DNA from: an uncultured virus (IMG/VR IMGVR_UViG_3300030376_003962)
Taxonomy: Duplodnaviria; Heunggongvirae; Uroviricota; Caudoviricetes
Virus record (IMG/VR): IMGVR_UViG_3300030376_003962
DNA length: 64,000 nt
Direction: 5' to 3' (one strand)
Positions 9,155-32,242 of the stretch are shown one piece after another (positions within the stretch are counted from its first letter, which is position 1; every line of letters starts with the position of its first letter). The position numbers and the translations under genes are program-made. A model generated the notes under the pieces. It worked only from the letters and a program-made list of their open reading frames with translations. It did not search any database and had not been told where the DNA came from.

Positions 9155-10036
9155 TCAGAACCATTCATCTAGCCCCCGTTGATTTCTGTCTTTAGTTATC
9201 TGATTCAAGTCCCATTCCATTGCTCTGAATACAGGCTCTGCTTTCTTGACTACAGAATCTGCATAGTGTTGCCAATCAGGAGTGAAGCCGTCGAAGTCTT
9301 CCTTCAGTAAGAACGAAACGTAGTTTGGCGTTACTGCCTTATCGATAATCGGATTGATATAAGTTTGATTACAGTTCTTTATCCTTAGAAAAAGATACGA
9401 GTCATCTATTGACTGATAGCCCATACTGTGACTAAACAGAACACCTTCTACACCTGAACCAACCGTTGGTCTCTTATCACCAAGAGTCTTGAATGATTTA
9501 GGCGCACCACAACAGGGCGTCTCCATCAAATCAAACATCGAACTGGTCTGACGACAGTTGTTGCACACTACTTGGAATCTCTCTTCCCTGTATCGGCTTC
9601 TTTTGAGTATGTCTACTATTGGTAATCTTCCATTCACGACCTCATTGTACTTTTCATTCAGGTAGTCTACAATCTCATTCTCTGATTTGTTCTCAACCCA
9701 CATGTTGAGTACATTCAATTGCACATCTTTAGCCAATTGAGTGTTGGAAACACGCTTTGCAGTGAATCCTGTCATAACGAACTCTTCTTTATCTAGAAAA
9801 TCTCCGTCTTTCCAAGTAATTAGACCGGCATTTCTGTTTTTTGTTGCTCCAACGCCCAATGTTCGGAAGTATTTCTCAAACTCTAGAGTCACAGGATGTT
9901 CTTTTAGCCCCATTACATTAGGAAAGAGTTCTCTAACATGTTCATTCAGTATTTTAAGAGCCTTTTCAGCAGTCTCTATGCTGTTATCCTCGACATCGAC
10001 GTAAATCGAATCAGTATGACCATAAACTACCTTCAT
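9155..10036 (-). CDS. polB: Family B DNA polymerase, C-terminal part (motif C, thumb, PIP box)
   Basis: Begins MKVVYGHTDSIYV (motif C), then LEFEK, KNRNAG, GFTAKR; ends QRGLDEWF (PIP box). Confidence 0.9.
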   Translation of the reverse strand: MKVVYGHTDSIYVDVEDNSIETAEKALKILNEHVRELFPNVMGLKEHPVTLEFEKYFRTLGVGATKNRNAGLITWKDGDFLDKEEFVMTGFTAKRVSNTQLAKDVQLNVLNMWVENKSENEIVDYLNEKYNEVVNGRLPIVDILKRSRYREERFQVVCNNCRQTSSMFDLMETPCCGAPKSFKTLGDKRPTVGSGVEGVLFSHSMGYQSIDDSYLFLRIKNCNQTYINPIIDKAVTPNYVSFLLKEDFDGFTPDWQHYADSVVKKAEPVFRAMEWDLNQITKDRNQRGLDEWF

Positions 10037-10242
10037 ATTACATTCACATCCTGTAAAAGCGAGAACAAACCGTAAACGAATACAGAAACGAACAGAACCT
10101 TACTTGAAATGCTCAATAACTTCCTAGCATCCTTTAATATCTGATTCATAGCCTCCTTTCTCAACTCAGACTCTGATTTCTCAGGTGTTTTCCCTTTCTC
10201 ACTCTTTAAAAATTCAATATTTGCACTTTTTATTGGCATCAC
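10033..10242 (-). CDS. Small protein with C-terminal TM segment, lying between the two polB parts
   Basis: 69 aa, coupled by GTGA/ATGA overlaps at both ends; VLFVSVFVYGLFSLL. Confidence 0.6.
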   Translation of the reverse strand: MMPIKSANIEFLKSEKGKTPEKSESELRKEAMNQILKDARKLLSISSKVLFVSVFVYGLFSLLQDVNVI

Positions 10243-11903
10243 AGTTCCCTCACTTTAAACGCAGCAGCCCTGATTGCTTCTCTAGCACTAGCAGTTATAC
10301 TAGCAGCCAAATCAACATCAGCCCAACCGAATCCTTGGTATGCGATGATACCATAGAATGAAGCCATCAGTCTTTTGACAGCAAGTTGATTGTTGTTCCA
10401 CTTTGCGTATTCACTTTTACTTTCACTTTCTTTCATCTTCACTTTGTATTCGTTCCTCAACTCTTTGAGTTCTAGAACTGCTTTTGGTAGCAACCCTAGT
10501 TCATTCGTCTTGTAATATCTCATGTCACTGTCCTTTACTTCAGAGAAGTCCTTTGGTGTTCTCAGATTTACACCAAATTCTGTTGGTGCTTCTGACTTGG
10601 TTTCCCAAGAGATATTTCTTGCAATCATCATGCTTGGATATAGACCAGCAAAGTCGAATGCTGCAACACCCAAATGCAGGCCGTTCGTACCCTCGCTGAG
10701 AGGGTCATAGACCATTGCCCCATCATAGTCCACCCTGTCACCTTTCCTACCCGTAGGGGCTTTCCATGAAGCATTTCTCATGAAGTATATTCCACCCATG
10801 TTGCTAGCATAGAAGCAAGCGTCGAATGGTGCTTTTAGTAAAAGTTGTAAAGAGATGATGGCTTCAGTTGTGAAGTTCTCATCGTCTATCCTCTTGATTA
10901 GTTCTACATCTTTCAAAGCATAATCTAGATAGGTCTCTGTGTCTTCTTGCCAACCTCTCCTGAAGAATTCATTCTTATCAGGAAATTTCTCACTGACTAA
11001 CTTCTTTTCTCCAAGCACATGCTCTGATACATAATCCAAGGATAGTGATGGTAGTGTTCCCTTCTGAGCATCATTCCACTGTCTCTCAAACGCTAAGTCT
11101 AGAGGTACACAGATTCTACCCTTGATTGGTTGTGCTATTGGAGAGTAGTTTTCTATCTGCTTCTTCTTAAGAATACGACTACCCTGACTGATAGACCATT
11201 CAACACCTGTGAGTTCTTGAACAGGCGATAGTAGTCTTGGGTCGATGCCATTGACATCTAATCTCTCAATTAATTTAGGAACATCGAACTTCCAACCAAA
11301 CCATGAGATAAGCATATCCGGGTCTTTCTCTGTAATCATTAGAATGAACCTCTCAAGTATAGTTCTCTCAGATTCTTCTGAGTCAGGTTGCCAAGTAAGA
11401 GTGTAATACTCGTCATCAAAGTTATCGTAAACAACAATAGCAGTAATAGCACCATCATGCTCTCCACCTTGCATCCACTCCATATCCCAATACCACTTAC
11501 GCATTCGATATTGTGGCATCTCTGTAATCTCATCAACGGCATAGCGGTAGTGATGTCTCACATCTGCCTCATAGGTGTTGATTCCCCTGTTGTGGAAATT
11601 AGTACGAATCTTACTAATCATCTTCCCTGATTTGGTATAGCGAGTCTTGTATGGCGTCCAAGTCACCTTCAATAGTCTCTGCCCGTCAAGATTAACCCAA
11701 TCTCCTTCTTCATAGAAGAGATTTACGAAGAATGGTTTTGACCTACCCTCCTGTAGAACAATCTTGTCTTTCAGAGCATGGTTTCTGTTTTCGATGAAGA
11801 AGTAAGGGGAGAACTCCGAGAAAGAAATATTCCTATCCTTTCTGTTCTCTTCCTCATCTCTCCAACGTAGAAGAATACCCTCTTCAGTATTTGCTATTAT
11901 CAT
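10239..11903 (-). CDS. polB: Family B DNA polymerase, N-terminal part (3'-5' exonuclease, motifs A and B)
   Basis: ExoI WDMEW, ExoII WKFD, ExoIII YALKD; motif A FDFAGLYPS; motif B QLAVKRLMASFYG. Confidence 0.92.
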   Translation of the reverse strand: MIIANTEEGILLRWRDEEENRKDRNISFSEFSPYFFIENRNHALKDKIVLQEGRSKPFFVNLFYEEGDWVNLDGQRLLKVTWTPYKTRYTKSGKMISKIRTNFHNRGINTYEADVRHHYRYAVDEITEMPQYRMRKWYWDMEWMQGGEHDGAITAIVVYDNFDDEYYTLTWQPDSEESERTILERFILMITEKDPDMLISWFGWKFDVPKLIERLDVNGIDPRLLSPVQELTGVEWSISQGSRILKKKQIENYSPIAQPIKGRICVPLDLAFERQWNDAQKGTLPSLSLDYVSEHVLGEKKLVSEKFPDKNEFFRRGWQEDTETYLDYALKDVELIKRIDDENFTTEAIISLQLLLKAPFDACFYASNMGGIYFMRNASWKAPTGRKGDRVDYDGAMVYDPLSEGTNGLHLGVAAFDFAGLYPSMMIARNISWETKSEAPTEFGVNLRTPKDFSEVKDSDMRYYKTNELGLLPKAVLELKELRNEYKVKMKESESKSEYAKWNNNQLAVKRLMASFYGIIAYQGFGWADVDLAASITASAREAIRAAAFKVREL

Positions 11904-17913: not shown

Positions 17914-19440
17914 TCAATATATGTTGCTACACATATCCTCTACGTCTTGAATTGTGTTAGAATCTACGGGGTACTTATCATCCCTGATTCTGACTATTCT
18001 AGGAAATCGCATACCATATGTGCCATCCTTGTTCTTGGTTATCGCATCACAGGTAACTTCCAGTACCACTCTTGGCAGGAAGAAGTATTTGTTATTGGTA
18101 TAACTGTCTACGATTCTCTTCAATCTAACTGATAGTTCATCCATCTCAGCATCAGATATTCCTGAACCCACTTTTCCAATCTCCGTGTATCCTGACTCGC
18201 TTCTGACTGATACACCGTAAGTAGCAATCATGCCTGCTTTCTTGCCATTCCCAAACTCACCCGAAGTTATAGTAACATCAAGTTCTATTCTAGGTGGTTT
18301 GAATTTCAAGAGCGATGTTGTTCTCTTCGATTGGTAAACAGCATCCAAGTCCTTTATCATAACACCTTCAAAACCTGCATTGATAGCAACATTGTATGCT
18401 GCTTCGACATTACCATGAGTGAATGACTGCGCGATATATTCTGATGGTATTGATTCCTCTAGATAATCTAGCCTATCGCTGTAGGTGTCATCTAGCAATG
18501 ATTGTCCGTTGTACATGAGACAATCGAAAACTGCTAACTTCACAGGACAATTCGCTATTGCCTTTTGCTTGTCCTTTGAGTGTACTCTTGTAGCGAGCGA
18601 TTGGTGTTTAGCAGGACTGCCTTCGGAATCCACAGGATATATCTCAGCATCTAATATTATCCCGTTACCCCATTGAGACATTAACTCAACAACATCCGAA
18701 TATTGGTCAGTCACTATCTTTCCCTTGCGATTGAATATAATCGTGCTACCGTAATCACGATGAATCTGATATCTATTTCCATCGTACTTGATATCCATGA
18801 TATACCTCTCAGGTAATTTACCTAGATACTTCTTGGCAAGCATGGGCTTCACATAATTACCATGCACTAATTGTGGTGGCTCAATGTTGTTCTCTAGATA
18901 GTGAATCAATCCAGTCAGTGAGTGACTGACAGAATGCTTCTTCACATCCTCTTGATAGTAATCAGCCATCGCCTTTTCAACAGTGCTTCTGTTTACTCCG
19001 TTTCTCGGTGTTCTCAACCAATAGCGGATAAACCACTTTACTTCCATAGCAGACATAGCACCGATGGCATCAGATATCTGCGTGAAGGCATCTGAGTTTA
19101 TCGTAGAGCAATCTAACTCCAACAACCTGTGAAACTCTGTTACGCTTATGTTTGAATCAGGTCTGTTTGCGGATAGGAACTCTTTCATCCCCTCTCCTAA
19201 GTCCATCCACCTATATGCAGAGTCCTCTATCTCATCTTCAAATACATCGAATATCTTAGCAAGCCATTTGATGGCCTTCTTTTCCCCAATGTTATTCTGA
19301 GCATACTCTAATGCGAGTATGCTGATTACGTCTTTTCTATCACTGAAATGCGATAGAGAAGAGTGAATTAGAAATCTCTTCCTTGTTGGTGTTTCATTCT
19401 CTAGTGACTCACACATCCTGCTGAATCTTATCATTGTCAT
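17914..19440 (-). CDS. lig: ATP-dependent DNA ligase
   Basis: KYDGNR (motif I), LDAE, FDCL, EGVMIK, KFK, RFPR. Confidence 0.95.
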   Translation of the reverse strand: MTMIRFSRMCESLENETPTRKRFLIHSSLSHFSDRKDVISILALEYAQNNIGEKKAIKWLAKIFDVFEDEIEDSAYRWMDLGEGMKEFLSANRPDSNISVTEFHRLLELDCSTINSDAFTQISDAIGAMSAMEVKWFIRYWLRTPRNGVNRSTVEKAMADYYQEDVKKHSVSHSLTGLIHYLENNIEPPQLVHGNYVKPMLAKKYLGKLPERYIMDIKYDGNRYQIHRDYGSTIIFNRKGKIVTDQYSDVVELMSQWGNGIILDAEIYPVDSEGSPAKHQSLATRVHSKDKQKAIANCPVKLAVFDCLMYNGQSLLDDTYSDRLDYLEESIPSEYIAQSFTHGNVEAAYNVAINAGFEGVMIKDLDAVYQSKRTTSLLKFKPPRIELDVTITSGEFGNGKKAGMIATYGVSVRSESGYTEIGKVGSGISDAEMDELSVRLKRIVDSYTNNKYFFLPRVVLEVTCDAITKNKDGTYGMRFPRIVRIRDDKYPVDSNTIQDVEDMCSNIY

Positions 19441-19642
19441 TTTTATTCCTCATTATCTTATCTAGTGCCTTATAGACATCTTCCATTTCTTTCATATTCA
19501 TTCTAACACCCTTCTTCGTAGGTGTTCCGTTAGAATGCCAGCGAATGTCAACTATGTCAACATTCCAATAATTGCCAGTTCTAACTATCAATTCGTCACT
19601 CCCATTCCTTGGGACTCTCACTATTATCTTATCATCCTTCAA
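19409..19642 (-). CDS. PC4/p15-family ssDNA-binding protein
   Basis: VDIRW...PTKKGVRM signature; probable TTG start at 19642. Confidence 0.75.
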   Translation of the reverse strand: MKDDKIIVRVPRNGSDELIVRTGNYWNVDIVDIRWHSNGTPTKKGVRMNMKEMEDVYKALDKIMRNKNDNDKIQQDV

Positions 19643-20030
19643 GCCAACCACCCTTAAACTGCTGCAAGTTCTTCCACGATTTGAAGTATCGGGGAGACTC
19701 TTGCTCATCTACTCTATGTACCACCCACACGACGCCACCAAGACTACTTATCTTAACCAACTCATATGTTTTTCCTCCTACCTCAAACATATCCTCTGTC
19801 TGAACATCGGGAACTAACCCGAATTTTTGTGATAGTTCGTTGGCAATCTCATCCATGTGTTCAGCGATATACTGAACGATTAGATGGCGTTGTATCGGTA
19901 CTTTAGCATCGACGGTAACTTTGATTTTACCATGCATCTCACAAACTCTGCACTTATTACCCTCACAGATAGGGCATGGTATCTCAGCAGGAAGCGGAGC
20001 AGGAAAACGAATAGTCACTGCTTTCTTCAT
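19632..20030 (-). CDS. Hypothetical protein with CxxC...CxxC
   Basis: CPICEGNKCRVC. Confidence 0.6.
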   Translation of the reverse strand: MKKAVTIRFPAPLPAEIPCPICEGNKCRVCEMHGKIKVTVDAKVPIQRHLIVQYIAEHMDEIANELSQKFGLVPDVQTEDMFEVGGKTYELVKISSLGGVVWVVHRVDEQESPRYFKSWKNLQQFKGGWLEG

Positions 20031-20488
20031 TGTCTGCCATCCCATACTCTGTAAACCACTTCGTAGTCAACTGTGACATTGAATGGGAAGGCTGCAAAGT
20101 GTAGGGTTGCATTACCGAATTCAGGTGCGAAACCGCTTGACCAATAATGCTGTCCTTGAACTAAATAACCCTGCATGTCCACCCAACTGTAATTGTTGAA
20201 TATCACGGAGTTGTTCGTGACCTCAAAGGATAGATGTGTTATGTTATACATGAATGATTGAAGTTCAATCGCTCCGTGACTAGCGTTGACATCCAGCCAA
20301 ATTGTCGGGGCATGTATCAGCGTTTCATTCGTTGAGTTATCCATAATCAATGTGAACTCACCTGTAAGAGTCATCCAGTCAGAGTCATTGGTCTGCCCGT
20401 CAAACTCATCTTCAGGCGGGTCGGGTAGTGCTTCAGTACATCCTGCTAGTAAAGCACCTACTATCATAAGCGTCATTATTCGGTTCAT
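20027..20488 (-). CDS. Predicted lipoprotein / surface glycoprotein
   Basis: Signal peptide with lipobox LAGC; 9 N-x-S/T sequons. Confidence 0.7.
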   Translation of the reverse strand: MNRIMTLMIVGALLAGCTEALPDPPEDEFDGQTNDSDWMTLTGEFTLIMDNSTNETLIHAPTIWLDVNASHGAIELQSFMYNITHLSFEVTNNSVIFNNYSWVDMQGYLVQGQHYWSSGFAPEFGNATLHFAAFPFNVTVDYEVVYRVWDGRQ

Positions 20489-20741: not shown

Positions 20742-20968
20742 GCTTTCACCACCGATTTAGGGAAGAATACGTCTTCCCAAACTGTCAGTTCTGCTTCAGT
20801 CATCTTGGTAGTGAAGATAGTTCCGCTACGCAGATGTATCTCCACATCAAACGTATTCCTCTTCAACATGCCTTCAGGTACTTCGACTACTGAATAAGCA
20901 GATACCTCTGCCATATTCAATGTCGTATTCCCTGCCGTTGTCGCCAGTTTGTAGAATTTATCTTTCAT
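20738..20968 (-). CDS. Hypothetical protein
   Basis: Coupled ORF with GGTGA RBS. Confidence 0.6.
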   Translation of the reverse strand: MKDKFYKLATTAGNTTLNMAEVSAYSVVEVPEGMLKRNTFDVEIHLRSGTIFTTKMTEAELTVWEDVFFPKSVVKA

Positions 20969-21159
20969 TCTTCATCACCTATCTCAATTATATCCATCAT
21001 TTCCTTCTGCGCAAAACCGTACTTAACATCCATTCCGAATCCTATCTCATGCATTATCTGCATCATAGTTACTATTCTCTCTTGGATGTGGTGCGGTGGG
21101 TCACAAGGTTCCCCATCAACATCGTATTGAATTGCTAGTGTCCAAAATTTCTTACTCAT
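20965..21159 (-). CDS. Hypothetical protein
   Basis: Coupled ORF with GGTGA RBS. Confidence 0.55.
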   Translation of the reverse strand: MSKKFWTLAIQYDVDGEPCDPPHHIQERIVTMMQIMHEIGFGMDVKYGFAQKEMMDIIEIGDEE

Positions 21160-21707
21160 TCTTCTTCACCATCCAATACATCTTCTGCTACCTTCACCCA
21201 ATCAGGTTTCTCAACAGGCTCTTGTTGGTAAATACCGTAGTATACCTTCTTCGCTATTTCTGAATTACAGTCATAGGCAATGAATTGATTATCACCTAGA
21301 ACTGTTGCACTCTCCATCATACCCTTCCATGAATGGATAGTTCCCCAATCAGTACCACTGAAGAAAGCCTGTCCGAATGGATGTGTGTGTATCCAGCATT
21401 TCAATGGTAACTTCATACCACCTAATTGTCCTTCTTGGTCTTTGAAACTAACAAACCCAAATGTTCCAACGCTGATATACAAGTCATCTTTGGCATCAAC
21501 AATAACCTGAACCTCTCTTGGCGAATCAAATGCCTCAAGAGACTTGTTCCATATCACTGTGTAGAATGCCTCAGTCTGAGGGTCGGGAAATGGATAGGCG
21601 AACTCGATTTGCTCAAACACAGTCTTGATGTCCTCTTTCCAACTTTCATCCTTAATCTCTAATCCCTTTATTCCATTATTATCATATTCTGTTTCATCTG
21701 TTTTCAT
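21156..21707 (-). CDS. JAB/MPN+ (JAMM) metalloprotease
   Basis: REVQV...WIHTHPFGQAFFSGTD matches E...HxHx7SxxD. Confidence 0.85.
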   Translation of the reverse strand: MKTDETEYDNNGIKGLEIKDESWKEDIKTVFEQIEFAYPFPDPQTEAFYTVIWNKSLEAFDSPREVQVIVDAKDDLYISVGTFGFVSFKDQEGQLGGMKLPLKCWIHTHPFGQAFFSGTDWGTIHSWKGMMESATVLGDNQFIAYDCNSEIAKKVYYGIYQQEPVEKPDWVKVAEDVLDGEEE

Positions 21708-21950
21708 TTATATTCCTCCCATTTGTGTTACTCTCTTGTCCTGTTCATTCTCAAACTCATGATATGCCCTATGACCTGCGATGAACCCACCTGCGTGTCT
21801 CTTGGTTCCCAAGAACTCTTCACCGCAAACAGGACATACAACCTTCACAATCTCTGCTCGCTTGTAATATCCATCTGTGGAAATTATGGTTATAATCTCC
21901 CCAATATCTTCTTCTGATAAGTCATCTATGTTTTCATCCTCTTTACTCAT
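21708..21950 (-). CDS. C2H2-like zinc-finger protein
   Basis: CPVC...GHRAYH. Confidence 0.55.
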   Translation of the reverse strand: MSKEDENIDDLSEEDIGEIITIISTDGYYKRAEIVKVVCPVCGEEFLGTKRHAGGFIAGHRAYHEFENEQDKRVTQMGGI

Positions 21951-21954
21951 TCTT

Positions 21955-22233
21955 TCACCTCATATATTGTCGAAGGCTTTTGATTCGCCTTGGTGCGACC
22001 AATCGAGGTTCTTCAACTATAACCTCTGTCTCTTCTATTTCGTTCTGTACTTGTTTGATGTCCATTCCCTTTTGCAAGGGGAGAAGTACACTCCTTCTAT
22101 ACTGTTCCTTCCACATGGCCTGAACGCAGCCGTCACAGAACTCAGCAGTCTCTGCCTTACTCTTGGTGATAGGCTCTGCTATCGCTCCGCATAGCGTCTT
22201 GCCGAGAAGTAAGAAATGAATTACCTCACTCAT
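21955..22233 (-). CDS. Hypothetical protein
   Basis: H...LCG...CDGC; in operon. Confidence 0.55.
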   Translation of the reverse strand: MSEVIHFLLLGKTLCGAIAEPITKSKAETAEFCDGCVQAMWKEQYRRSVLLPLQKGMDIKQVQNEIEETEVIVEEPRLVAPRRIKSLRQYMR

Positions 22234-22460
22234 TCTCCCTTCTCCTTGTAGGCAGGATGCTTCTTCGGCAACCTGTGCAGTCTTCTTACAATCATGTTGT
22301 TCACTAGATTGGATACTGAGTCAGCACCATCTGCGAATCTCTTGCTTGCAACATCATCACCTGAAGGACACATTCTATCTTCTAATTCTGTTAAGTCTAT
22401 TCTATCCATTATATATTTCAATACTTCATATTCAACGTGTATCTTTGAACTCGCTCTCAT
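22230..22460 (-). CDS. Hypothetical protein
   Basis: GAGGTGA RBS; coupled. Confidence 0.55.
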   Translation of the reverse strand: MRASSKIHVEYEVLKYIMDRIDLTELEDRMCPSGDDVASKRFADGADSVSNLVNNMIVRRLHRLPKKHPAYKEKGE

Positions 22461-22624
22461 TCTTCTTCACCTCTACATTTTACGCATGATAGATTCTGTT
22501 TACATCTACCACAAATTACTCTTGCTTTTGCTAGTGGCAGAAATGCACCTGCACTACTCGCTTCACCTAGAAAGGTCTCAAGCGGATAGTGACAGGCACA
22601 TTCCTTGCAGTCGCATTTACTCAT
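22457..22624 (-). CDS. 55-aa Cys-rich protein coupled to the E1-like gene
   Basis: MSKCDCKECACHYPLETFLGEASSAGAFLPLAKARVICGRCKQNLSCVKCRGEEE; ATGA overlaps at both ends. Confidence 0.55.
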   Translation of the reverse strand: MSKCDCKECACHYPLETFLGEASSAGAFLPLAKARVICGRCKQNLSCVKCRGEEE

Positions 22625-23238
22625 ACTTGCAACACCATCTTATCTACAACGTCATCGTTGTTGTTAAACCACTTCTGTATCCACTGTGTCGCAATACCAG
22701 CAATGGCTATGTTCATGCAATCCACTCCTTGGGGAGTGCCATCCCATTCTCCTGATTGGCAGGAGAAGGAACCCTCGTCACCAGCGAGAAATGCATCCAT
22801 CATCTTAGGGTCAATGAGGTACGAGATTAACGCGCCTGTTCGTCCTTGCGCTCTCAAATCAACCCACTTAATCTTAGCATCAGAGCCAAAGCCCTGCCGA
22901 TATAGTATACGCCTGACCGCTAGATTGTCTGCACAGCAGATAACCAAGTCGTAGCCAATCATCTGCTTCTCAATCAGAACGTGATATGGCTCATCTGATA
23001 CAGAGCCGCCTGCAACCGTGTTGTAGTTCCTATCTGATAGACACTCAACTTTCTTCTCACCTATATCAGACTCAAAGAAGTTCTGATAGGTGAGATTCTT
23101 TCTCTCAACACTATCTTCATCGAAGATTGTTATTCTATATCCTAGCCTTTGGAGGAATTGAGTTAGGAAACTACCTATTCCACCTGCTCCTATTATCATT
23201 ACATTTCTATTCATTCTTTTCATTTTCATATTTATCAC
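22621..23238 (-). CDS. ThiF/MoeB/E1-like adenylyltransferase
   Basis: IIGAGGIGS, DEDSVERKNLTYQ, KKVE, DLVICCADN, RR. Start may be at 23214. Confidence 0.88.
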   Translation of the reverse strand: MINMKMKRMNRNVMIIGAGGIGSFLTQFLQRLGYRITIFDEDSVERKNLTYQNFFESDIGEKKVECLSDRNYNTVAGGSVSDEPYHVLIEKQMIGYDLVICCADNLAVRRILYRQGFGSDAKIKWVDLRAQGRTGALISYLIDPKMMDAFLAGDEGSFSCQSGEWDGTPQGVDCMNIAIAGIATQWIQKWFNNNDDVVDKMVLQV

Positions 23239-23488
23239 TCATTTCTATTATTCTCATATCTATTTGTTGCTGTTGATAGTGATGCCACGCATCGACTATC
23301 TCATGTGTTATTCCATCCATCGTCGCACCGACGACTGAGATTGCATCTTCCAGAACAGTTCTCCTGACGACGTTCTTCAACTGCGGCAGGCTTTCATATT
23401 CTTCAATAAATTTACTGAAGTGGATTTGCATTCTTTTCAATGTGTTAATTACTTCTTCCATACTATCACTTCCATGTTCCATGTACAA
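23207..23488 (-). CDS. Hypothetical protein
   Basis: Helical ORF between TFB and E1. Confidence 0.5.
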   Translation of the reverse strand: MYMEHGSDSMEEVINTLKRMQIHFSKFIEEYESLPQLKNVVRRTVLEDAISVVGATMDGITHEIVDAWHHYQQQQIDMRIIEMSDKYENEKNE

Positions 23489-24350
23489 ACTCTGCTACTT
23501 TCATATTCAACAAGTCTTTCTTGTCTATGCCAAACCACTCACAAATTTCAGTTAACGATGCTCTTATCCCCATGATGGAACAGTTGCCTGATGCCTTGCG
23601 AATCAGTTCTTGTGTATGGTGTCTTTCATCTTCCATGACGGAAACCGCCCAAATAATAGCGCAAATCTTGTTTGGTGTAAACCTAACAGCGATTAAATCA
23701 CAGTATCGATTTACAAAATCAATCATGATGAGAGTGTTGTGTCTGTAATTGCTAGACACGTTATCCAATTTATCCAAGACGGTTGACGCTACTTGATTTG
23801 GGTTTATCGTAGATAGGATGTGTGACTTACGGAAATGCTTGGCTACTCTCTTACCGTATCTAGAGATGTATTTTCTCTCAACCATGCAGAAGTCACTATG
23901 CTTAGTGAGATTCATGGGTATCCCTGACTCCTTGATGATGTAGTAAGTCAAGGACGCTGACCTGTGTTCGACGGGTATACCATTGAATACACGCTCGCTG
24001 TTCAGCGAACGTAGATATGACCTAACCAACTCGACGTTCTTGAATGAGTAGTTAGACAATATCATCATACATTGATTGACTGTTCTGATGTCTGTCTCTG
24101 AGTCATTGCTTGCCCATTTATTGTGCTTCTTCATCCTGAACATCTGATTGGAGTCAGTTTCCATGATGATAGAACCCAATCTGCCCTTAGTAGGTTCACG
24201 TAGTCTCTTCCCGTTGTAGTCCACGCCTCTAACTGATTCCTCAAATGGCCTGACTACATGGACTAAACCACAATCATCACACACATTCTCACCTAGATGG
24301 TCATCGAAGGTGAATGAGGTACACCTGCATTCTGCACATACGCTGTTCAT
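23466..24350 (-). CDS. tfb: Transcription initiation factor IIB (TFB)-like protein
   Basis: Zn ribbon CAEC...GENVCDDCGLV, B-reader-like LGSII, two cyclin-like repeats (SASLTYY / CAIIWAVS...TQELI). Confidence 0.75.
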   Translation of the reverse strand: MNSVCAECRCTSFTFDDHLGENVCDDCGLVHVVRPFEESVRGVDYNGKRLREPTKGRLGSIIMETDSNQMFRMKKHNKWASNDSETDIRTVNQCMMILSNYSFKNVELVRSYLRSLNSERVFNGIPVEHRSASLTYYIIKESGIPMNLTKHSDFCMVERKYISRYGKRVAKHFRKSHILSTINPNQVASTVLDKLDNVSSNYRHNTLIMIDFVNRYCDLIAVRFTPNKICAIIWAVSVMEDERHHTQELIRKASGNCSIMGIRASLTEICEWFGIDKKDLLNMKVAEFVHGTWK

Positions 24351-25585
24351 CTTCTTTCACCTCTCATGTTGGGTTTCCCTTGATATTTCGCCTTCTCAAC
24401 TAATCTCTTGTTCAGTCTATATCTAGTAGACTTGATTTCACGCAGAGTCGATACCATTTGCAATGCCATTTTATCATTCTTCAACAGCATTGCTCTTGTT
24501 GCTATTTGGTCTCCAACCACATTCTTGCCATTTATGTCATCGATGCAGAATGGACCGCTTATCTTCCCATCATTACCATAGAACACCGAACTACATCTCT
24601 GAGTACCGGAAGTGTAGCCGTTTGGATAAACCAGCCAATCTCCAAGTTCTCCATGAACACATAATCCAAAATCAAGGGTTTTTGATAGTCCACCTAATTT
24701 ATCAGGTTGGAAAACAGGACTATTTACATTCACAAGAGTAATCGCATCATAAGTAGAATCCATATTCTGAAGAAGTTCAAACGCTCGCTCTTCCACAATG
24801 ACATCGGTTCTGTTCTGAAGAAGCCAAGCAGTCATCAATTGTAACTCTGATTCAGAAGCATGACTTCCGAACATATTGAACCAAAGGTTGGATGGGCTGA
24901 TGTTAGCCCACTTCTTGGAGCGTGAAGCACCGTTCCTGTAACAGTCGATGAATACATTAGCATCGTTTAGATTGGTTGATGCCCATACATTCTCCGAAAT
25001 CTCAAAGGCAATATCTTCCTTACCGATTAACTTGGTATTGATTTTCACCTTGATTTGTCTGCCGTCCTTGTAGAACCAGTAAGGTGTTCTGTTTTCCAGT
25101 GCATGTAGGACGTTACCTGAGTATGTGATGTTTCTTTCAATATACTCGACCATGTTTCTGCGACTTCTGTTCTGCGCTCCATAGGCAATTACCTTTGCAA
25201 GTGCAATCGCAACATCCTTCTGATTCTTCTTAACGCCATTCATATACCACTTGCTACCGTCTTTTCGCAAAACGATAGAAGCATCACCATCCTTGTACCT
25301 GAATGTGAAATAGGACATCTCACTAGAAAGAGCGTTGGATGAAGTATCCAAGTGCATGAAACTCCTGTGCATCTGCTCTGATAGAGTGTTCCAATATCCT
25401 TCCGAGTGATATTTCCTGTTACCCATTCTGTAGCAGGCTATCTCTATTTCACCATAACGATTCATTCTTCTGTTGTTCCTTCGATTGAAGTCAGGATTAT
25501 TGGTCTTGAATAGAAAGGAGGATGTCATATCCCTCTGACTTCTATAGTCCGTTCTCATTCGTGGTAGTTGTACTTTCATTTTCAT
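24347..25585 (-). CDS. Hypothetical protein (C-terminal GPFCIDD motif)
   Basis: ~412 aa, GGTGA RBS; no family recognised with confidence. Confidence 0.65.
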   Translation of the reverse strand: MKMKVQLPRMRTDYRSQRDMTSSFLFKTNNPDFNRRNNRRMNRYGEIEIACYRMGNRKYHSEGYWNTLSEQMHRSFMHLDTSSNALSSEMSYFTFRYKDGDASIVLRKDGSKWYMNGVKKNQKDVAIALAKVIAYGAQNRSRRNMVEYIERNITYSGNVLHALENRTPYWFYKDGRQIKVKINTKLIGKEDIAFEISENVWASTNLNDANVFIDCYRNGASRSKKWANISPSNLWFNMFGSHASESELQLMTAWLLQNRTDVIVEERAFELLQNMDSTYDAITLVNVNSPVFQPDKLGGLSKTLDFGLCVHGELGDWLVYPNGYTSGTQRCSSVFYGNDGKISGPFCIDDINGKNVVGDQIATRAMLLKNDKMALQMVSTLREIKSTRYRLNKRLVEKAKYQGKPNMRGERR

Positions 25586-25829
25586 TAATATCACCATTTC
25601 TTTTATTGTATAATTTCAAGTCGTATATCGAATACAACTCATCTTTCGTTAGTGTACTATATCCCTCGCGGATATAATATCTAATAGCATTGAGTATGAA
25701 AGTGGATGGAAACCTTCTAGGATTGGCCCTAGTATTGCGATACATATTGGATATTCTTGCCTTTGCACCAGCATTGATTAGACTAGATACAATTTCATCC
25801 TCAATTTCTAATATTTGCTTTCTATTCAT
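25542..25829 (-). CDS. Hypothetical protein (AT-rich)
   Basis: Coupled to the RNR stop. Confidence 0.5.
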   Translation of the reverse strand: MNRKQILEIEDEIVSSLINAGAKARISNMYRNTRANPRRFPSTFILNAIRYYIREGYSTLTKDELYSIYDLKLYNKRNGDINENESTTTTNENGL

Positions 25830-27715
25830 ATTTCACAGACTCCGCCTGCACAAGCAAGTTCGCCTTGCAGGTCAGTGTTGTCTTCTAACTCAACGACTTC
25901 TGTTAGATTAACCTCAGTCAGAAGTTTTAGCATGGTCTCGTACTGCTTCTTACCTATCGGTTCGTGTGGTGCTTGTTTGTACACCCCACCGTCGAAAGGT
26001 AGCACAGAAAGACCGTTGTAGAAGTCTCTGTTCTTCCACATCCAGTTCCTTACGTCATCCCATTCATCCTCACGGATGTTGACAGTTGCAGAAACATTGT
26101 GAGTGTTGACACCTCGATTGTGTCCTGTTACAACCCAATCGACTGATACTCTCTTTACTCTCTCCAACATCTCCAATGCTGATTCATCTCTTGTTATCGA
26201 ATTACCAGCAGGTGTCTTCTGAGGTATGGAGATGATAGCCTGATTCGGATTGTGGTAGTCGTCCTCCACTAAATCAGGGAACTTGGTTATCAGGTAATCA
26301 TAGATTGCCTCTGTCTTCAACACCCTGATTCTCCTGATGTAGTATTCAGACCACCAAGCATGGATGCCTGATGATGTTCCCATGACTAGACTGGTGGTTC
26401 CAGCAGGTTTGACGCATGTTATTCTCGCTGCCGTTTTGATGCCCAACGCGGTTGAGAAATACTCATTTGTGCTTCTTGCTTTGTTAGCAGCAGCCTCCAT
26501 GTCTAAGTTTAGAACACTACCACTTGCTATTCCAGTCATTGACACTCCTAGCAGTGCGTCTTTCTCGGATGTCTTCTTCCATACTTCCCTAAGATAGTGG
26601 AAGTCGGTATATGACGCTTGTAGTGTTCCTAAGAAAGTAGCATGTTCCACTCTCTTGTTCAACTCTGCTTGATTTGACACATCTGATACATTCACTTCTG
26701 TCAAGTTACAGAATTGATATGGTCTAAGAGCAATCTCACAACAAGGGTTGGTTCCCCAATCCTTGTCATTCGTGAAATAGAATCCCGGTTCTCCTGAACC
26801 TGAGTCTTGAACTCTCTTCCATAGATTGTTGAAGAAGTCCCTCTTGATTCTGTGTCGTAGTAGTACGACTGAGTTGTTTGCTCTTGCTCTCTGTGGGTTC
26901 TTCTCCCAAAAGTGTCCTGACTTCGATGTTATCATGTCATCGTCATCAGCACTGAACAAACTGATTAGTGCTGCTCTGCGAATACCGCCTGCCAACACTG
27001 CATCTGCAATGTAGCAAACGATATCGTGTGCTTCCAATGTGGTTAGTTTGTCTCCATTATCCTTGTTTGCAAGTATGCCTTCGACCTTAACTAGACATTC
27101 CTTCAGGGGTTGTGGGCCGGGTGCTTTACCACCACTAGTCTTCAACAACGCACCTTTCGGTCTGATGTCTGAGTAATCGAATCTAACTGTAGTTGCCCTC
27201 TTACCGATGTAAGACTCAAACAGAACCTTGACTGCATCTGCCCATCCTTCGATTGAATCTGCAATCAGATGTCTGTAAGTTCTCTTAGGGTTAGGTAGTC
27301 TAATCTCAGGTAACTTGTCAACATGATGACGTTGAACCGAGTAACCTACACCTGTTCCACCGAGCAATAGGAACATTGCCTCTGAGAACGAGAGATAATG
27401 GTCAATAGGCATGTAAGCACAATTGTACACACGATTAGGTGATAGTTCAATCGGCTTTCCTGCGAATTGCATTGACCTCATTGACGGTAGTATCTTCTTG
27501 GGGATAACATAGTTGTCGTATGTTTCGTGAATCTTATTCTTGAGAGTTTCAACTACATCATCCGATAGTTCTCTCTTAGTTATTGAATCTAAATGCATTT
27601 GCCTGTTTCTCTGACAAATCTCTTCCCATGTTTCTTTTCTCTTATCTGCTTCTTTCCACTTTGCATACTTCATATGTACAGTGATATCTGATAGTATTTC
27701 TTGTTGTATTTCCAT
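25826..27715 (-). CDS. nrdJ: Class II (adenosylcobalamin-dependent) ribonucleotide reductase
   Basis: NCAY, GGIRRAALISL, GSGEPG, GTNPCCEI, QFCNLTE, CVKPAGTTS, C-terminal CAGGVCEI; no small-subunit gene in the window. Confidence 0.9.
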   Translation of the reverse strand: MEIQQEILSDITVHMKYAKWKEADKRKETWEEICQRNRQMHLDSITKRELSDDVVETLKNKIHETYDNYVIPKKILPSMRSMQFAGKPIELSPNRVYNCAYMPIDHYLSFSEAMFLLLGGTGVGYSVQRHHVDKLPEIRLPNPKRTYRHLIADSIEGWADAVKVLFESYIGKRATTVRFDYSDIRPKGALLKTSGGKAPGPQPLKECLVKVEGILANKDNGDKLTTLEAHDIVCYIADAVLAGGIRRAALISLFSADDDDMITSKSGHFWEKNPQRARANNSVVLLRHRIKRDFFNNLWKRVQDSGSGEPGFYFTNDKDWGTNPCCEIALRPYQFCNLTEVNVSDVSNQAELNKRVEHATFLGTLQASYTDFHYLREVWKKTSEKDALLGVSMTGIASGSVLNLDMEAAANKARSTNEYFSTALGIKTAARITCVKPAGTTSLVMGTSSGIHAWWSEYYIRRIRVLKTEAIYDYLITKFPDLVEDDYHNPNQAIISIPQKTPAGNSITRDESALEMLERVKRVSVDWVVTGHNRGVNTHNVSATVNIREDEWDDVRNWMWKNRDFYNGLSVLPFDGGVYKQAPHEPIGKKQYETMLKLLTEVNLTEVVELEDNTDLQGELACAGGVCEI

Positions 27716-27801
27716 TTTCTCATCTCCTATGATTGGAAGTAGGCTTTGCACCTACTTGACAGTCAATCTAACTACTGCTAAGACTTGGGTTGCGTGTTAA
27801 T

Positions 27802-28002
27802 CTAACATCCGCCAACTACTGCTTGTTGTAGGCGAACTTCGTTGACGGTCTCCCAATCAACGTCGGGGATATTCTCCCTGAGAACCATGTCTCCGTCAAT
27901 GAACACCCAATGTGTCGGATGGTCATTTATCTGCTCAAGAGCAGAGACTTGGTTTACTTCCATTTCTGTGTGGCCTGTTTCGTTTGCTATTATCAATTTC
28001 AT
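27802..28002 (-). CDS. Putative ubiquitin-like (ThiS/MoaD/SAMP-type beta-grasp) protein
   Basis: 66 aa; MKLII...VFIDG...EVRLQQAVVGG-C end matches the ThiS/MoaD pattern; E1 and JAB genes lie downstream on the same strand. Confidence 0.7.
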   Translation of the reverse strand: MKLIIANETGHTEMEVNQVSALEQINDHPTHWVFIDGDMVLRENIPDVDWETVNEVRLQQAVVGGC

Positions 28003-28018: not shown

Positions 28019-28240
28019 TTATTCTGTTGTTCTTTGTGCTTGTACTTCTTGAAGCCTTCCGGTCAAGATGTTGATGGTCTGCTCGTAGTGTCTGCACAGC
28101 GCAATATAGTTGTTTGCTGTGTTAACTAGAGTCTGAATGTTCGCATTGTTCTGAACGAGCAACTGCTCAAGTTCTGCTATGCGGGTATCCTTCTCATCCA
28201 CCTTCTCTTCGGCTTTCTTTGTTTCCTTTTTTGTTGTCAT
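28019..28240 (-). CDS. Small coiled-coil protein
   Basis: Heptad-rich 73 aa, GGAGG RBS. Confidence 0.55.
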   Translation of the reverse strand: MTTKKETKKAEEKVDEKDTRIAELEQLLVQNNANIQTLVNTANNYIALCRHYEQTINILTGRLQEVQAQRTTE

Positions 28241-29364
28241 TGTTTTTCCTCCTTTAGTTCATCTATTAATGAAGATACATTTCCTTTCGTTAAATCAGAA
28301 ATGTCTCCATCATAGCCCAAAGCCCGCAGGTAATTCACCTGACGTTCAGTTGGCTTATCATTATAACGTTCATAGATTGATTTTACTTTATCAACTTGGC
28401 GTTCTGAGAGGTGTCTCCTTCTCAGAATGCGACCCTCCATGTCAGTCAGGAATCTCTTCTCCCAATTGTTCGATGCCATTTCGACAGAGAATACAGGGAT
28501 GTCGAAATACTCACAGGATTCCCTGAATTCATACCCCTGCTTCTCACGTAGAACGCTGTTTCTTATGGCTGCTTGCTTTCGATATTCCTCGTTCTTCAGT
28601 TTCTGACTCTCGATGTTCTCATCCTCTTCAGCAACAGTTGCTTTATGCCTCTCAAGTAATGCATCGAAGATAGTCATGTCATTCATAAGTTTCTCATTAG
28701 GGAAACCCTTCGTGTGAATCTGAGCCTTCGGGTTATCAGGATGATTCCATCGCCAAACGATAGAAGCCATCTCGTAATCCATAGTGCCAAACACTCCCTT
28801 GCCCTTCTTGCGAATCTTAGTCTCAGGGATAGTAATCCCTAGTGTTTTGTCAAAGACATATCTTCCACTCCTGCGAACGTTGATTCTCAAATCTAGTTCC
28901 TTGACCCTGTTGAACAGGTCAGTGAAATCCTCACCATTCGCTCTCCACCAAGCATCTTTCATCAATGCAGAAACACGGACATCAATCCATTCCTGAATCA
29001 TTTTCTCAGTGATTGACTGAGCATCCATTCCTGTCTCTTCTACGATTGCTCTGAGAATCATGTAGGAGTTGATGTGGTCTGAACCAACACACTCTCTAGC
29101 ACCAGTCTCAGTATTATGAATCTCGAAATGATACACTATTCGATGTGTGCATAAGCACTGGTTAGGATGATTCGATGCCCAATCGGGTCTTGGAGTCCCA
29201 ATACCCTGCCACCAAACTTCTCCTGTTGCAATCCACTCATGCTTCGCATCATCATAGTTATCCGAGATAGAAAGGTCAGTCATATTCTCCTTCAGTTTCT
29301 TATCCCATCTGCCGTTTCCTAATTCTTTCTTTGCTGTAATATACTCATTATCCATTTTATTCAC
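28237..29364 (-). CDS. Hypothetical protein with Zn-binding-like CLC...VGSDH motif
   Basis: 375-aa ORF, AGGTGA RBS. Confidence 0.65.
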   Translation of the reverse strand: MNKMDNEYITAKKELGNGRWDKKLKENMTDLSISDNYDDAKHEWIATGEVWWQGIGTPRPDWASNHPNQCLCTHRIVYHFEIHNTETGARECVGSDHINSYMILRAIVEETGMDAQSITEKMIQEWIDVRVSALMKDAWWRANGEDFTDLFNRVKELDLRINVRRSGRYVFDKTLGITIPETKIRKKGKGVFGTMDYEMASIVWRWNHPDNPKAQIHTKGFPNEKLMNDMTIFDALLERHKATVAEEDENIESQKLKNEEYRKQAAIRNSVLREKQGYEFRESCEYFDIPVFSVEMASNNWEKRFLTDMEGRILRRRHLSERQVDKVKSIYERYNDKPTERQVNYLRALGYDGDISDLTKGNVSSLIDELKEEKQ

Positions 29365-30200: not shown

Positions 30201-30441
30201 CTTTGTTCTTGTGCTTGAATCTCTTAATCATATCATTCAAGTTGTTCTTAGTTGTGGCAGTCATGAACTTCTGACCACCACGAAGGAATATCAGGATGCT
30301 GAAGAACTTCTCAATGTGGTCGTGTTCTCTGTTCCTGAATCTGTCCATCAATGGGTCATCCTCATCCAATGGTCTCCAAGTGAATGCTTGCATCTCTTCA
30401 ACAGAGACAATACCATTGGTGAATCGGATATACCCTTTCAT
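30151..30441 (-). CDS. Hypothetical protein
   Basis: ORF in the minus-strand operon. Confidence 0.5.
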   Translation of the reverse strand: MKGYIRFTNGIVSVEEMQAFTWRPLDEDDPLMDRFRNREHDHIEKFFSILIFLRGGQKFMTATTKNNLNDMIKRFKHKNKGEQYEYNNENMGAESP

Positions 30442-30601
30442 TCTTCTTCAATTCCGTGTAATGCCAACCACTCACTGTAAGTCGGTTCACACTGACACAG
30501 ACAAGGGACGGGTTCTTTCTCACCATATGCGGTTTGTAAAACTGCCGTTCCCGTTCCATTGCATATACTGCATATGCTTTCTCTAATTATTCTAATCGCC
30601 T

Positions 30602-31171
30602 TCATATCAATCCCCACTTGACTAGGATTGCGTCGTTGATTCTTTTTTCCTCAAGCGACATCTTGAGGTAATGGTCTTGAGGCCACCATTCAGGCTCTTG
30701 CGTCTTCCAAGTAGCGAATCGCCACTTGTCGTGGATGTAATACTGTCTGTACTTTTCGATAGTTGACATCTTATCGAATCCATCAACCAATCTGCACTTC
30801 ATGTTCTCTGAAATAGCGATTGCAAACGGAGTCAGTGCATCATCAGGCAGAAGTCTCTCTGCCTCATCCATCTGACAGGAATACTCGTTCATCAGAATTT
30901 CGACCTTGTGGGTCTTGCCATACCTGTTGGTATATTCGCTGCACAAGGCATAGGCATGTTCACGCAACCACTGAAAGTTCTGCTTCGTCTCCCTCGCCCA
31001 AATGGTGGAGGGGTGATTCAACATCACAGGCTTCCAACCTGCTTCCAAACCGAGATGGTCTAGAATAGTGAACAGCATCTGCAAACTCTCAGTTGGCATC
31101 TTCACCACATGTTTGTCCAGCATCATCTTCGCTGAAGTTCTAGGTGAATCATCTAGTGTGAATATGTTCAT
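30602..31171 (-). CDS. Pyrimidine-dimer DNA glycosylase (DenV-like) family protein
   Basis: MNIFxLD...DKHVVKM..E..QML, NHPSTIWAR, EYTNRYGKTH. Confidence 0.75.
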   Translation of the reverse strand: MNIFTLDDSPRTSAKMMLDKHVVKMPTESLQMLFTILDHLGLEAGWKPVMLNHPSTIWARETKQNFQWLREHAYALCSEYTNRYGKTHKVEILMNEYSCQMDEAERLLPDDALTPFAIAISENMKCRLVDGFDKMSTIEKYRQYYIHDKWRFATWKTQEPEWWPQDHYLKMSLEEKRINDAILVKWGLI

Positions 31172-31605
31172 TCCTCTTCACCTCTGTCATTCCTCAAACT
31201 CTTTCGCAGTCTCTTGACCACAATGGCATCCACCTTGTCCTTGAAGTAATCAGACTTCATCTCCTTCCTCAAGACAGAGCCGACTACCCTCTTGTTGGAG
31301 GTGATGCTATCTACTATCTTCTCAAGCCTCGCAACCTGAGCCTCCAAGTCTGAAATCCTCTTCCTCTCGATGTTCTCGACGTTCATCTTATGCATAACCC
31401 ATTGGCGCATACTGTCGTTGTTGCCACCTTGAGCATACTTGTTAGTGCTATACACCAGTGGTGTGTGACCTTGCAGATGACTACTCTTCTGATAGTTACC
31501 TATGTGATTGTCACAATACTTCTGCTGGCTATTGCGACTGGTATAAACCGCATTGCACTTGTGTCCGTCTTCCAATATATATTCGCATCTTCTTGTCATT
31601 TTCAT
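31168..31605 (-). CDS. Hypothetical protein (N-terminal C/C/C/H finger, coiled coil)
   Basis: GGAGG RBS before MKMTRRC. Confidence 0.55.
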   Translation of the reverse strand: MKMTRRCEYILEDGHKCNAVYTSRNSQQKYCDNHIGNYQKSSHLQGHTPLVYSTNKYAQGGNNDSMRQWVMHKMNVENIERKRISDLEAQVARLEKIVDSITSNKRVVGSVLRKEMKSDYFKDKVDAIVVKRLRKSLRNDRGEEE

Positions 31606-32242
31606 TATTATTCCTCCTGTTGTTGATTGATTGTAATGCAGAGAAAGGTCGAGGCCGCGTGAACCTCCGATACTAGGAAGTGAAACAACACCGAGCAATA
31701 ACTCTCGGTAAGACCTTTTTTATTCATATCAAAACTCTGCTCGCTATGTCATGCACGTAGCCATACGATATTGACATTTTGAGTGTGTTGTCGGAAAAAA
31801 GCGTTGCGGAGAGAGATTACAACTACTGTGATTATTTGCTTTTTTTACTCAGTAAACCGACTGTGTAGTATCCTACACATGTATAGTTATAGGGCAATGA
31901 ACCCTGTTAGTTTGAAGGGGGAAAGGAATAGGTTCTATGCCCATTCCTACGAGTTAGGAAACTGCTATCCGGTAGAACGATTAGCCTATTTGGTTTTACA
32001 TATCCGTATTATCCTGCTTTATTTTTTATAGCGCAAAGCCATCGACTCGTTTCTAAAGCCGACGAACACGTTTTCCTTGATTACTCAATCATCCTGCTAA
32101 GTCTGATATTCATCAATTCTGATATAACTCTGTTATCTTCAATTCCTTATTATTTGGTAAACCCCCAATTTCTCCATGCTCACCGTTAAACCGCTAAGTG
32201 TAACTTGGCTCTACGAGCATATGGTGGAGTGTGGTCGATAAC

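Follow-up and report, generated by a model that had tools for sequence, protein, structure and literature searches.

A predicted ubiquitin-like modifier, E1 enzyme and JAMM protease in a magrovirus-like virus of marine archaea

The ubiquitin-like protein, the E1 enzyme and the JAMM protease

The window studied here, a stretch of 64,000 nucleotides from an uncultured virus (IMG/VR record IMGVR_UViG_3300030376_003962), carries on its minus strand genes for a 66-residue ubiquitin-like protein (Ubl), a minimal ThiF-type adenylating enzyme (E1) and a JAMM metalloprotease (JAB), which together suggest a viral system for protein modification (Table 1). Judged by gene content against the available part of the published magrovirus description (PMC5434244), the window is part of a magrovirus-like tailed virus of marine archaea. 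A preliminary description of this DNA had proposed the three genes as a module, interleaved on one strand with a ribonucleotide reductase (RNR) gene and a TFB-like gene. The listing of open reading frames (ORFs) agrees with the 66-residue frame and its AVVGG-C end, and ORF and family matches agree with the arrangement of all five genes, which belong to a tight minus-strand chain with overlapping stops and starts. As members of the module Ubl, E1 and JAB stand; a 416-residue protein, here called X, as well as poly-Ubl and Ubl-E1 fusion relatives, had been missed.

Table 1. Features of the window. aa, amino acids. Counts out of 22 refer to loci found from E1 and counts out of 51 to complete loci found from JAB.
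Feature	Position	Strand	Basis and occurrence
Ubl precursor, 66 aa, ends QQAVVGGC-stop	27802-28002	-	ORF listing; own Shine-Dalgarno sequence (GGAGG) upstream
E1, minimal ThiF-type adenylating enzyme, 205 aa at most, GTG start	22621-23238	-	PF00899
JAB, JAMM/MPN+ zinc metalloprotease, 183 aa, H107-T-H109-x7-S117-x-x-D120	21156-21707	-	MPN core 38-155 after helical N-terminal extension
X, 416 aa, candidate E2-like carrier	24347-25597	-	51/51 loci; no recognised family
TFB/TFIIB-like protein, 294 aa	23466-24350	-	always directly upstream of E1, 51/51 loci
C2H2-like zinc-finger protein, 80 aa, ends GG-x	21708-21950	-	directly upstream of JAB; 20/22 and 46/51 loci
Class II (B12-dependent) ribonucleotide reductase	25826-27751	-	RNR families; RTPR 1.6e-83
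Conserved 375-aa protein upstream of Ubl	28237-29364	-	51/51 loci; no family matched
73-aa coiled-coil ORF between Ubl and 375-aa gene	28019-28240	-	38/51 loci
B-family DNA polymerase (PolB), two ORFs	10239-11903 and 9155-10036	-	Pfam; 69-aa ORF (10033-10242) between
ATP-dependent ligase, replication block	17914-19440		Pfam
ATP-dependent ligase domain in 853-aa protein	57999-60560	+	between portal and prohead protease genes

The C-terminus of Ubl is almost invariant among close relatives. A word-based search gave 36 close homologues (alignment A1), all of which keep the GG end, one frameshifted fragment aside; G64 is invariant, V62, V63 and G65 are conserved in at least 90%, and the GG is followed by C, V, Y, F, L, RF, NY, IL or nothing. 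An exhaustive profile search of 1.84 billion representatives returned 112 Ubl matches with a common signature consisting of a GH turn, one Trp and (L/V/I)VGG, a few members ending in QAG; most free-standing forms have tails of 0 to about 4 residues and some have longer extensions. In related viral loci, the Ubl ORF ends in GG plus one to three variable residues in 54 of 54 cases (Y 13, C 10, NQ 6, GNQ 5, others). Conservation of the GG in homologues, proposed beforehand as a check, is therefore seen together with a variable tail. Since the Ubl stop lies 50 nucleotides (nt) from the next start, the GG is not a by-product of a Shine-Dalgarno sequence.

The AlphaFold (AF2) model of Ubl computed from A1 (predicted local distance difference test, pLDDT, 82.1) shows the order strand-strand-helix-strand-strand-short helix-strand, followed by a disordered tail. 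All 50 Foldseek matches listed for it from the PDB are of ubiquitin, NEDD8, ISG15 or MoaD type (best E-value 8e-3), and its fold matches in BFVD are viral ubiquitins and phage tail Ubl domains ('Tip attachment protein J'). The topology and these ubiquitin-type matches agree with the beta-grasp fold expected earlier, and the 66-residue protein, as modelled, is a beta-grasp protein. The family moreover resembles ubiquitin by sequence: the best 60 PDB sequences matched by a profile of diverged members (A4) comprise nothing but ubiquitin, and the alignment stays in register as far as the GG. The ThiS and MoaD families of Pfam did not match Ubl. Gene organisation in the family is of the polyubiquitin style, at least 12 of the 112 representatives being tandem poly-Ubl proteins (three with 3 repeats, at least nine with 2). 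A short linker follows the VGG at the end of each repeat, and a short tail that of the last. Such an organisation requires a protease that cuts after GG.

E1 matches PF00899 with an E-value of 3.1e-18 and 66.2 bits (Pfam cut-off 28.1), which bears out the earlier assignment of this ORF to the ThiF/E1 enzymes. Its homologues begin a few residues further in, and the true start may be a downstream ATG. Invariant in 26 aligned sequences (A3) are GxGGxGS, D40, D42, K47, N48, D104, N105 and R109, which we take to be the nucleotide-binding and adenylation residues of E1 enzymes, as well as Q52, K63, R129, R133 and C160. Outside CC101/102, the sole cysteine conserved throughout is Cys160 of the GSFSCQ loop, which Ubl-E1 fusions retain as TSCQ. 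No CxxC pair, as in the zinc site of the MoeB/ThiF/UbaA type, was found among the conserved columns of A3, and the protein ends soon after the adenylation core. Profile comparison matched E1 to Cap2, MoeB, Uba4, UBA5 and Uba1 (about 1e-10 to 1e-9), and also to MccB, ThiF and BubCD; PADLOC models matched solely its adenylation part and gave no match for Ubl, JAB, X or the 375-residue protein. Against the SAMP-activating UbaA (NF047750) it scored 41.3 bits, the curated equivalog cut-off being 450. By these comparisons E1 is a stripped-down member of its superfamily and no orthologue of any named enzyme, and it looks active from the invariance of its adenylation motifs and Cys160.

Two small ORFs next to E1 were considered and set aside. 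A cysteine-rich ORF of 55 residues after E1 (22457-22624), regarded as a RING-like protein or as the missing zinc module of E1, was dropped because few loci have it (8 of 22 and 9 of 51). Just upstream of E1, a 93-residue ORF (23207-23488, minus strand) matched RPN1_RPN2_N with an E-value of 0.0026, under the cut-off, and the match was judged to be due to chance.

JAB combines an MPN fold with the JAMM catalytic motif E...HxH...S..D. The HxHx7SxxD signature reported in the preliminary description was recovered, and E65, H107, H109, S117 and D120 are invariant in the 41 sequences aligned, out of 202 homologues. Profile matches include AMSH-LP (4e-5) and the Rpn11 homologue of Caldiarchaeum (1e-4). 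For the JAB model (pLDDT 90.3), Foldseek lists Rpn11 homologues, AMSH/Sst2, PfJAMM1 and CSN5, with the Caldiarchaeum Rpn11 homologue as the top match.

The acidic C-terminus of JAB is one of several: C-termini of the G-E-E-E type are common at minus-strand junctions between 20613 and 31698 (JAB, 22457-22624, 30438-30617, 31168-31698 and 20965-21159). At these junctions the codons GGTGAAGAAGAATGA include both GGTGA or GGAGG, serving as ribosome-binding site, and ATGA, in which the stop overlaps the start of the next gene; the acidic tails are therefore a by-product of translational coupling. The near-invariance of E181 and E183 in the JAB family likewise results from the overlap of the tail codons with the translation signals of the next gene.

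Linkage of the three genes within and beyond magroviruses

A scan of IMG/VR with the JAB alignment gave 334 matching stretches, the best 80 of which were analysed. E1 was present in 72 and Ubl in 54 of these 80, every miss being short of upstream DNA: where upstream DNA exceeded 2.7 kb, E1 was found in all 67 loci, and where it exceeded 7.7 kb, E1 and Ubl were both found in all 51. Starting from E1 (22 loci in IMG/VR), Ubl was found 22 times and JAB 21 times, the exception being cut by a contig end 423 nt after E1. The 375-residue protein, Ubl, X, the TFB-like protein, E1 and JAB are always present in the 51 complete loci. The co-inheritance predicted for the three genes was thus observed in 51 of 51 loci with enough flank and, in the form of adjacency and fusion, in an unrelated lineage described below.

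Further scans extended this set slightly. Alignment A5 found one further triad locus (L024) and one doubtful match (L025) among viral contigs, where the fusion P0308 and the triple Ubl P0278 as single queries, and alignment A6, gave no match. In a scan of 185,579 species genomes with A1, which is bound to the search patterns of that alignment and says little on whether host genomes carry the Ubl family, the sole match was L028 (1-7530), a magrovirus-like fragment of 7.5 kb with a GC content of 37% in a metagenome-assembled genome labelled Altibacter, a bacterial genus. Its presence there is probably a binning error.

Given that the block is wholly syntenic among magroviruses, the three genes might have nothing to do with each other beyond sharing a conserved replication block, and the GG end of Ubl might be incidental, the more so as overlapping ribosome-binding sites can yield a C-terminal GG or EEE in the window. 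The discriminating evidence therefore comes from the poly-Ubl forms, the Ubl-E1 fusions and a second lineage. The fusion proteins P0291 and P0308 match the window Ubl (1e-8 and 2.7e-11, respectively) and nearly the full length of the window E1, residues 10-190 (1.1e-14 and 4.4e-16), which suggests that the substrate of E1 is its own Ubl. The second lineage, with a GC content of about 50% (51% in L026), comprises the contigs L026 (1-8612) and L027 (1-4623). Both carry an ORF in which two Ubl units are fused to E1, preceded by a T7-like single-subunit RNA polymerase, a TFB-like gene and a protein of an unclassified family (X'). Directly after the fusion, L026 has a JAB homologue (3.9e-19); L027 ends before that point. 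Of the window genes, 33 were tested for homologues in this lineage, and none but Ubl, E1 and JAB had one. Ubl-E1 fusions and JAB adjacency in a lineage sharing no other gene with the window contradict a chance neighbourhood, as do the distance of the Ubl GG from the next start and the retention of VGG at internal repeat ends, and we regard an incidental grouping of the three genes as extremely improbable.

The cluster of L026 abuts cellular-looking genes on the opposite strand, namely a radical-SAM wyosine-formation enzyme and PhoU/PHO4 phosphate transport genes, and may be an integrated element.

A proposed route to protein conjugation and its alternatives

Based on what the in silico analysis shows of the three proteins, namely their folds, motifs and genetic linkage, we consider it fairly probable that the virus encodes its own Ubl system, in which JAB matures Ubl, E1 adenylates it and conjugation to proteins follows. 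As far as its genes tell, the virus probably tags proteins itself. The processing, adenylation, thioester and conjugation steps would proceed as follows. Ubl would be made as a precursor with one residue after the GG, or in relatives as a tandem poly-Ubl or a fusion. The JAMM protease would cut after the second glycine and would probably also act in deconjugation. E1 would adenylate the exposed glycine (Gly65) with ATP and may take Ubl onto its loop cysteine, Cys160. Ubl would finally be attached to target lysines, either directly, as in the conjugation of small archaeal modifier proteins (SAMPs), or via Cys351 of X acting as an E2-like carrier.

Alternatively, Ubl could be a sulfur carrier that is adenylated by E1 and converted to a thiocarboxylate by host sulfurtransferases for tRNA thiolation or a cofactor, JAB only exposing the GG. 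The affinities of E1 are of the ThiF/MoeB type, MoaD ties occur among the fold matches of Ubl, and operons of ThiS/MoaD, E1 and JAB are known (PMC1779556, available text). However, only ThiF-type matches and no rhodanese domain were found on the 205-residue E1, and the 98 window ORFs scanned with Pfam at E-values up to 0.01 (18 proteins at up to 5) include no sulfur-acceptor, cofactor or tRNA-thiolation enzyme, in line with the earlier statement that no thiamine, molybdopterin or tRNA-thiolation partner was recognised; host enzymes could substitute. Tandem poly-Ubl is more in keeping with a consumed modifier than with a recycled carrier; in sequence, the diverged Ubl profile finds ubiquitin and not ThiS/MoaD; and the matches of E1 to sulfur-pathway families all lie far under the cut-offs. 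We favour conjugation over sulfur transfer because of the poly-Ubl forms, the ubiquitin-like sequence signal and the lack of a rhodanese domain and of a sulfur-acceptor enzyme, and judge a sulfur-carrier function unlikely. The preference for conjugation voiced in the preliminary description has gained strength from these data; it is a preference that we, too, infer.

The module could also interfere with the SAMP/proteasome pathway of the host, JAB stripping host SAMP conjugates while the viral Ubl and E1 compete with that pathway or poison it. In a separate fold comparison the best match of JAB was indeed the archaeal desampylase PfJAMM1, its complex with SAMP2 included, and many putative desampylases are reported from Borg elements of archaea in the available text of PMC12660748. 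Yet the Ubl-E1 fusions tie E1 to its own Ubl, and the GG-plus-tail precursor and poly-Ubl supply JAB with a cognate substrate. A deconjugase acting alone, moreover, would have no need of the triad, which is kept in 51 of 51 loci. Interference of this kind appears quite unlikely.

For the last step of the proposed conjugation route, X is a candidate E2-like carrier, as judged from its conserved cysteine. C351, G362, D363, Q364, R368, N374 and D375 are invariant in the X alignment (A10), and the sequence around Cys351 presumably resembles the active-site region of UBC enzymes. Wherever RNR is absent, X adjoins the Ubl gene on the downstream side. The region of the Cys351 motif alone gives hhalign matches among X, the X' of L026/L027 and a domain of about 300 residues that is fused after Ubl in P0289, P0326, P0305 and P0314. 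The architecture of this fusion recalls the BubAB Ubl-E2 fusion (PMC11601596, available text). It is possible, if tentative, that magroviruses encode a complete and self-sufficient Ubl cascade, made up of pro- and poly-Ubl, a JAMM enzyme for maturation and deconjugation, a minimal E1 and X as a new E2-like carrier, which would tag transcription and replication factors of host or virus. That the targets are such factors, and that the module serves to seize control of transcription or replication or to set its timing, is speculation prompted by the TFB-like neighbour in two lineages and the position of the module in a replication/transcription block.

A number of results weigh against conjugation by a viral Ubl system. 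Ubl has no family match in Pfam, PHROG, PADLOC or NCBIfam, so that its identity rests on profiles, models and motifs; the close-family profile A1 found no Ubl in the PDB, and the matches of A4 to single ubiquitins are borderline (E-values 0.02-0.09), the stronger E-values for polyubiquitins merely adding repeats. Only the N-terminal half of E1 aligns to solved E1 structures, and its NCBIfam ranking is headed by PRTRC ThiF, ThiF, MoeB and UbaA, with ThiS/MoaD adenylyltransferases and PRTRC ThiF as the nearest curated families, all of them far under their cut-offs. Pfam alone makes no call for JAB (Prok-JAB, E-value 0.017, 15.5 bits, cut-off 25), whose identity is based on the same kinds of evidence as that of Ubl. 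Pfam recognised neither an E2 nor a RING or other ligase family among the 98 window ORFs. X itself has no Pfam match at E-values up to 5, no PDB-profile match (and nothing relevant with A8 and A9) and no Atlas match or model, and its relationships are weak, with hhalign probabilities of 54%, 8% and 2% among X, X' and the Ubl-fused domain and a jackhmmer E-value of 0.19 from X to the X' of L027. As for linkage, co-inheritance within magroviruses is non-discriminating, the whole block being syntenic there (ligase in 50 of 51 loci), and the independent lineage consists of two related contigs, one alone reaching JAB.

Tagging by Ubl proteins is known from eukaryotes, from a few archaea (SAMPs; operons in Caldiarchaeum and Asgard archaea) and from bacterial operons that act against phages. 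The nearest functional counterparts of the viral module are the archaeal SAMP system, the Caldiarchaeum operon and the bacterial Bub/6E operons. The archaeal SAMP system (SAMP1-3, the E1 UbaA and the desampylases HvJAMM1/PfJAMM1) has a JAMM protease, as the viral module does, and no E2. The module differs from it in being encoded by a virus, in an E1 that lacks CxxC and is no UbaA orthologue, and in a Ubl without ThiS/MoaD Pfam match; the viral Ubl is a tailed precursor with poly-Ubl and E1-fused relatives, and a candidate cysteine carrier (X) is present.

In Caldiarchaeum, the Rpn11 homologue cuts pro-ubiquitin after GG before E1 activation (PMC5654768). The operon of Caldiarchaeum subterraneum shares with the viral module a GG followed by removable residues, a JAMM/Rpn11-type protease and a ubiquitin-like Ubl profile. 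It has, as far as described, a recognisable E2, a small RING E3 and a tail of nine residues, whereas neither enzyme was recognised in the viral module, whose tail has 0-3 residues and whose E1 is far smaller. The bacterial Bub/6E operons (PMC11601596; PMC1779556, Table 1, row 6e) include poly-Ubl, a Ubl-E2 fusion and a JAB, and the JAB domain cuts after the Ubl glycine of the BubAB Ubl-E2 fusion (PMC11601596). In contrast to Bub/Bil systems, no JAB-E1 fusion, DUF6527 protease or recognisable E2 was found among the 98 window ORFs. Bub is described as forming oxyesters without a catalytic cysteine, while an invariant cysteine is retained in the viral E1 as well as in X; and Bub/Bil are bacterial operons thought or shown to act against phages, whereas the viral module is among the core genes of a virus.

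ThiS/MoaD-E1-JAB operons (quinolobactin/PDTC and CysO-type; PMC1779556, rows 4a-4e) likewise combine a Ubl, an E1 and a JAB with no recognisable E2, and their JAB exposes the GG, as predicted for the viral one. As published (PMC1779556), these operons have a rhodanese domain on E1 and a neighbouring gene for a sulfur-acceptor enzyme, neither of which was found in the window. Lambdoid and T1 phages likewise encode a Ubl-JAB pair, TAPI (Ubl) and TAPK (JAB-NlpC/P60) (PMC1779556, row 5). That pair, as described there, has no E1 and lies in the tail module, while the viral module includes an E1 and lies in a replication/transcription block. That the module is a virus-borne form of a known kind of system is well supported in silico.

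The preliminary description knew of no characterised example in an archaeal virus, and our literature searches agree. The available texts of two papers flag viral genes of this kind: ThiF/MoeB is listed as a prevalent 'AMG' (auxiliary metabolic gene) of archaeal viruses, with a remark on ubiquitination (PMC8276007), and E1-like genes are noted in an Asgard virus (preprint 10.1101/2021.07.29.454249). The searches found no literature linking magroviruses or Poseidoniales viruses to ubiquitin, ThiF or JAB, and no published description of the Ubl, the triad, the poly-Ubl forms or the fusions for magroviruses. Ubiquitin, ThiF and JAB are absent from the main texts of PMC5434244, PMC10160649 and PMC11706807 and from the text-searchable supplement of PMC5434244.

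If conjugation is borne out, a prokaryotic virus with its own modifier, E1 and protease among its core genes would put this chemistry to a new use, on the viral side of the conflict. The infection biology of magroviruses, which abound in the surface ocean and rank among the commonest viruses of its archaea, can be approached directly by few routes as long as their hosts are uncultured; a small soluble set of three or four genes, open to reconstitution in vitro, is one of them. The poly-Ubl precursors and Ubl-E1 fusions add data on the evolution of polyubiquitin-style genes and of E1-Ubl pairing. Should the complete cascade exist, archaeal viruses would be carriers, perhaps inventors, of ubiquitin features usually credited to the eukaryotic lineage.

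Neighbouring genes and viral setting

Of the genes between and around the triad, RNR occurs in 42 of 51 loci and is missing in all 9 loci with a short Ubl-JAB distance as well as in L028. It lies between Ubl and X, interleaved with the module as first described; from its absence in 9 of 51 loci, RNR is an optional insert that splits the module. The TFB-like protein matches Zn_Ribbon_TF (0.0017) and TFIIB (NF001658, 7.5e-5 over residues 118-275), both under the curated cut-offs, and we infer that its gene belongs to the module. With the 375-residue protein, a search of the Atlas returned unnamed virus-only clusters alone.

The zinc-finger protein of 80 residues resembles Ubl in its C-terminus: all 21 sequences close with GG and a further, variable residue. 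The next gene starts -3 to +3 nt from its stop in 15 of 16 distinct junctions, and the GG overlaps the ribosome-binding site of that gene. The codon of the first Gly varies (GGA, GGT, GGC or GGG), which hints at selection on the protein. The zinc-finger protein is possibly a second substrate of JAB or E1; alternatively, its GG may be a Shine-Dalgarno by-product.

Traits of magroviruses found in the window are a split PolB, RFC, two ATP-dependent ligases, one of them within the structural block, and a caudoviral morphogenetic module. The magroviruses of Marine Group II archaea include one group with a split polymerase and two ligases (available text of PMC5434244), which the split PolB of the window (9155-11903) fits. 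Pfam further matched an RFC-like AAA protein, ERCC4 and PD-(D/E)XK nucleases, terminase, portal, S78 prohead protease and a SU10-type capsid protein. The GC content of the window is about 0.41, and the strand of coding changes near 32 kb. Homologues come from marine metagenomes, often from contigs of 80-110 kb. Near-identical DNA was detected in marine metagenomes of several studies; the 20 sequencing runs listed, from 13 studies, are all DNA and include no RNA run.

Some minor features were noted elsewhere in the window. A 99-residue ORF (19409-19708, minus strand) matches the single-stranded DNA-binding coactivator PC4 with a Pfam E-value of 0.0099, under the cut-off and probably by chance. 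The structural block contains a PAP2-family phosphatase-like gene at 47629-48651. In the replication block, a 153-residue protein (20027-20488, minus strand) is kept in 46 of 51 loci and has a hydrophobic start followed by a cysteine, resembling a lipoprotein signal, as well as several N-x-S/T sites; from these features it may be a secreted or membrane protein.

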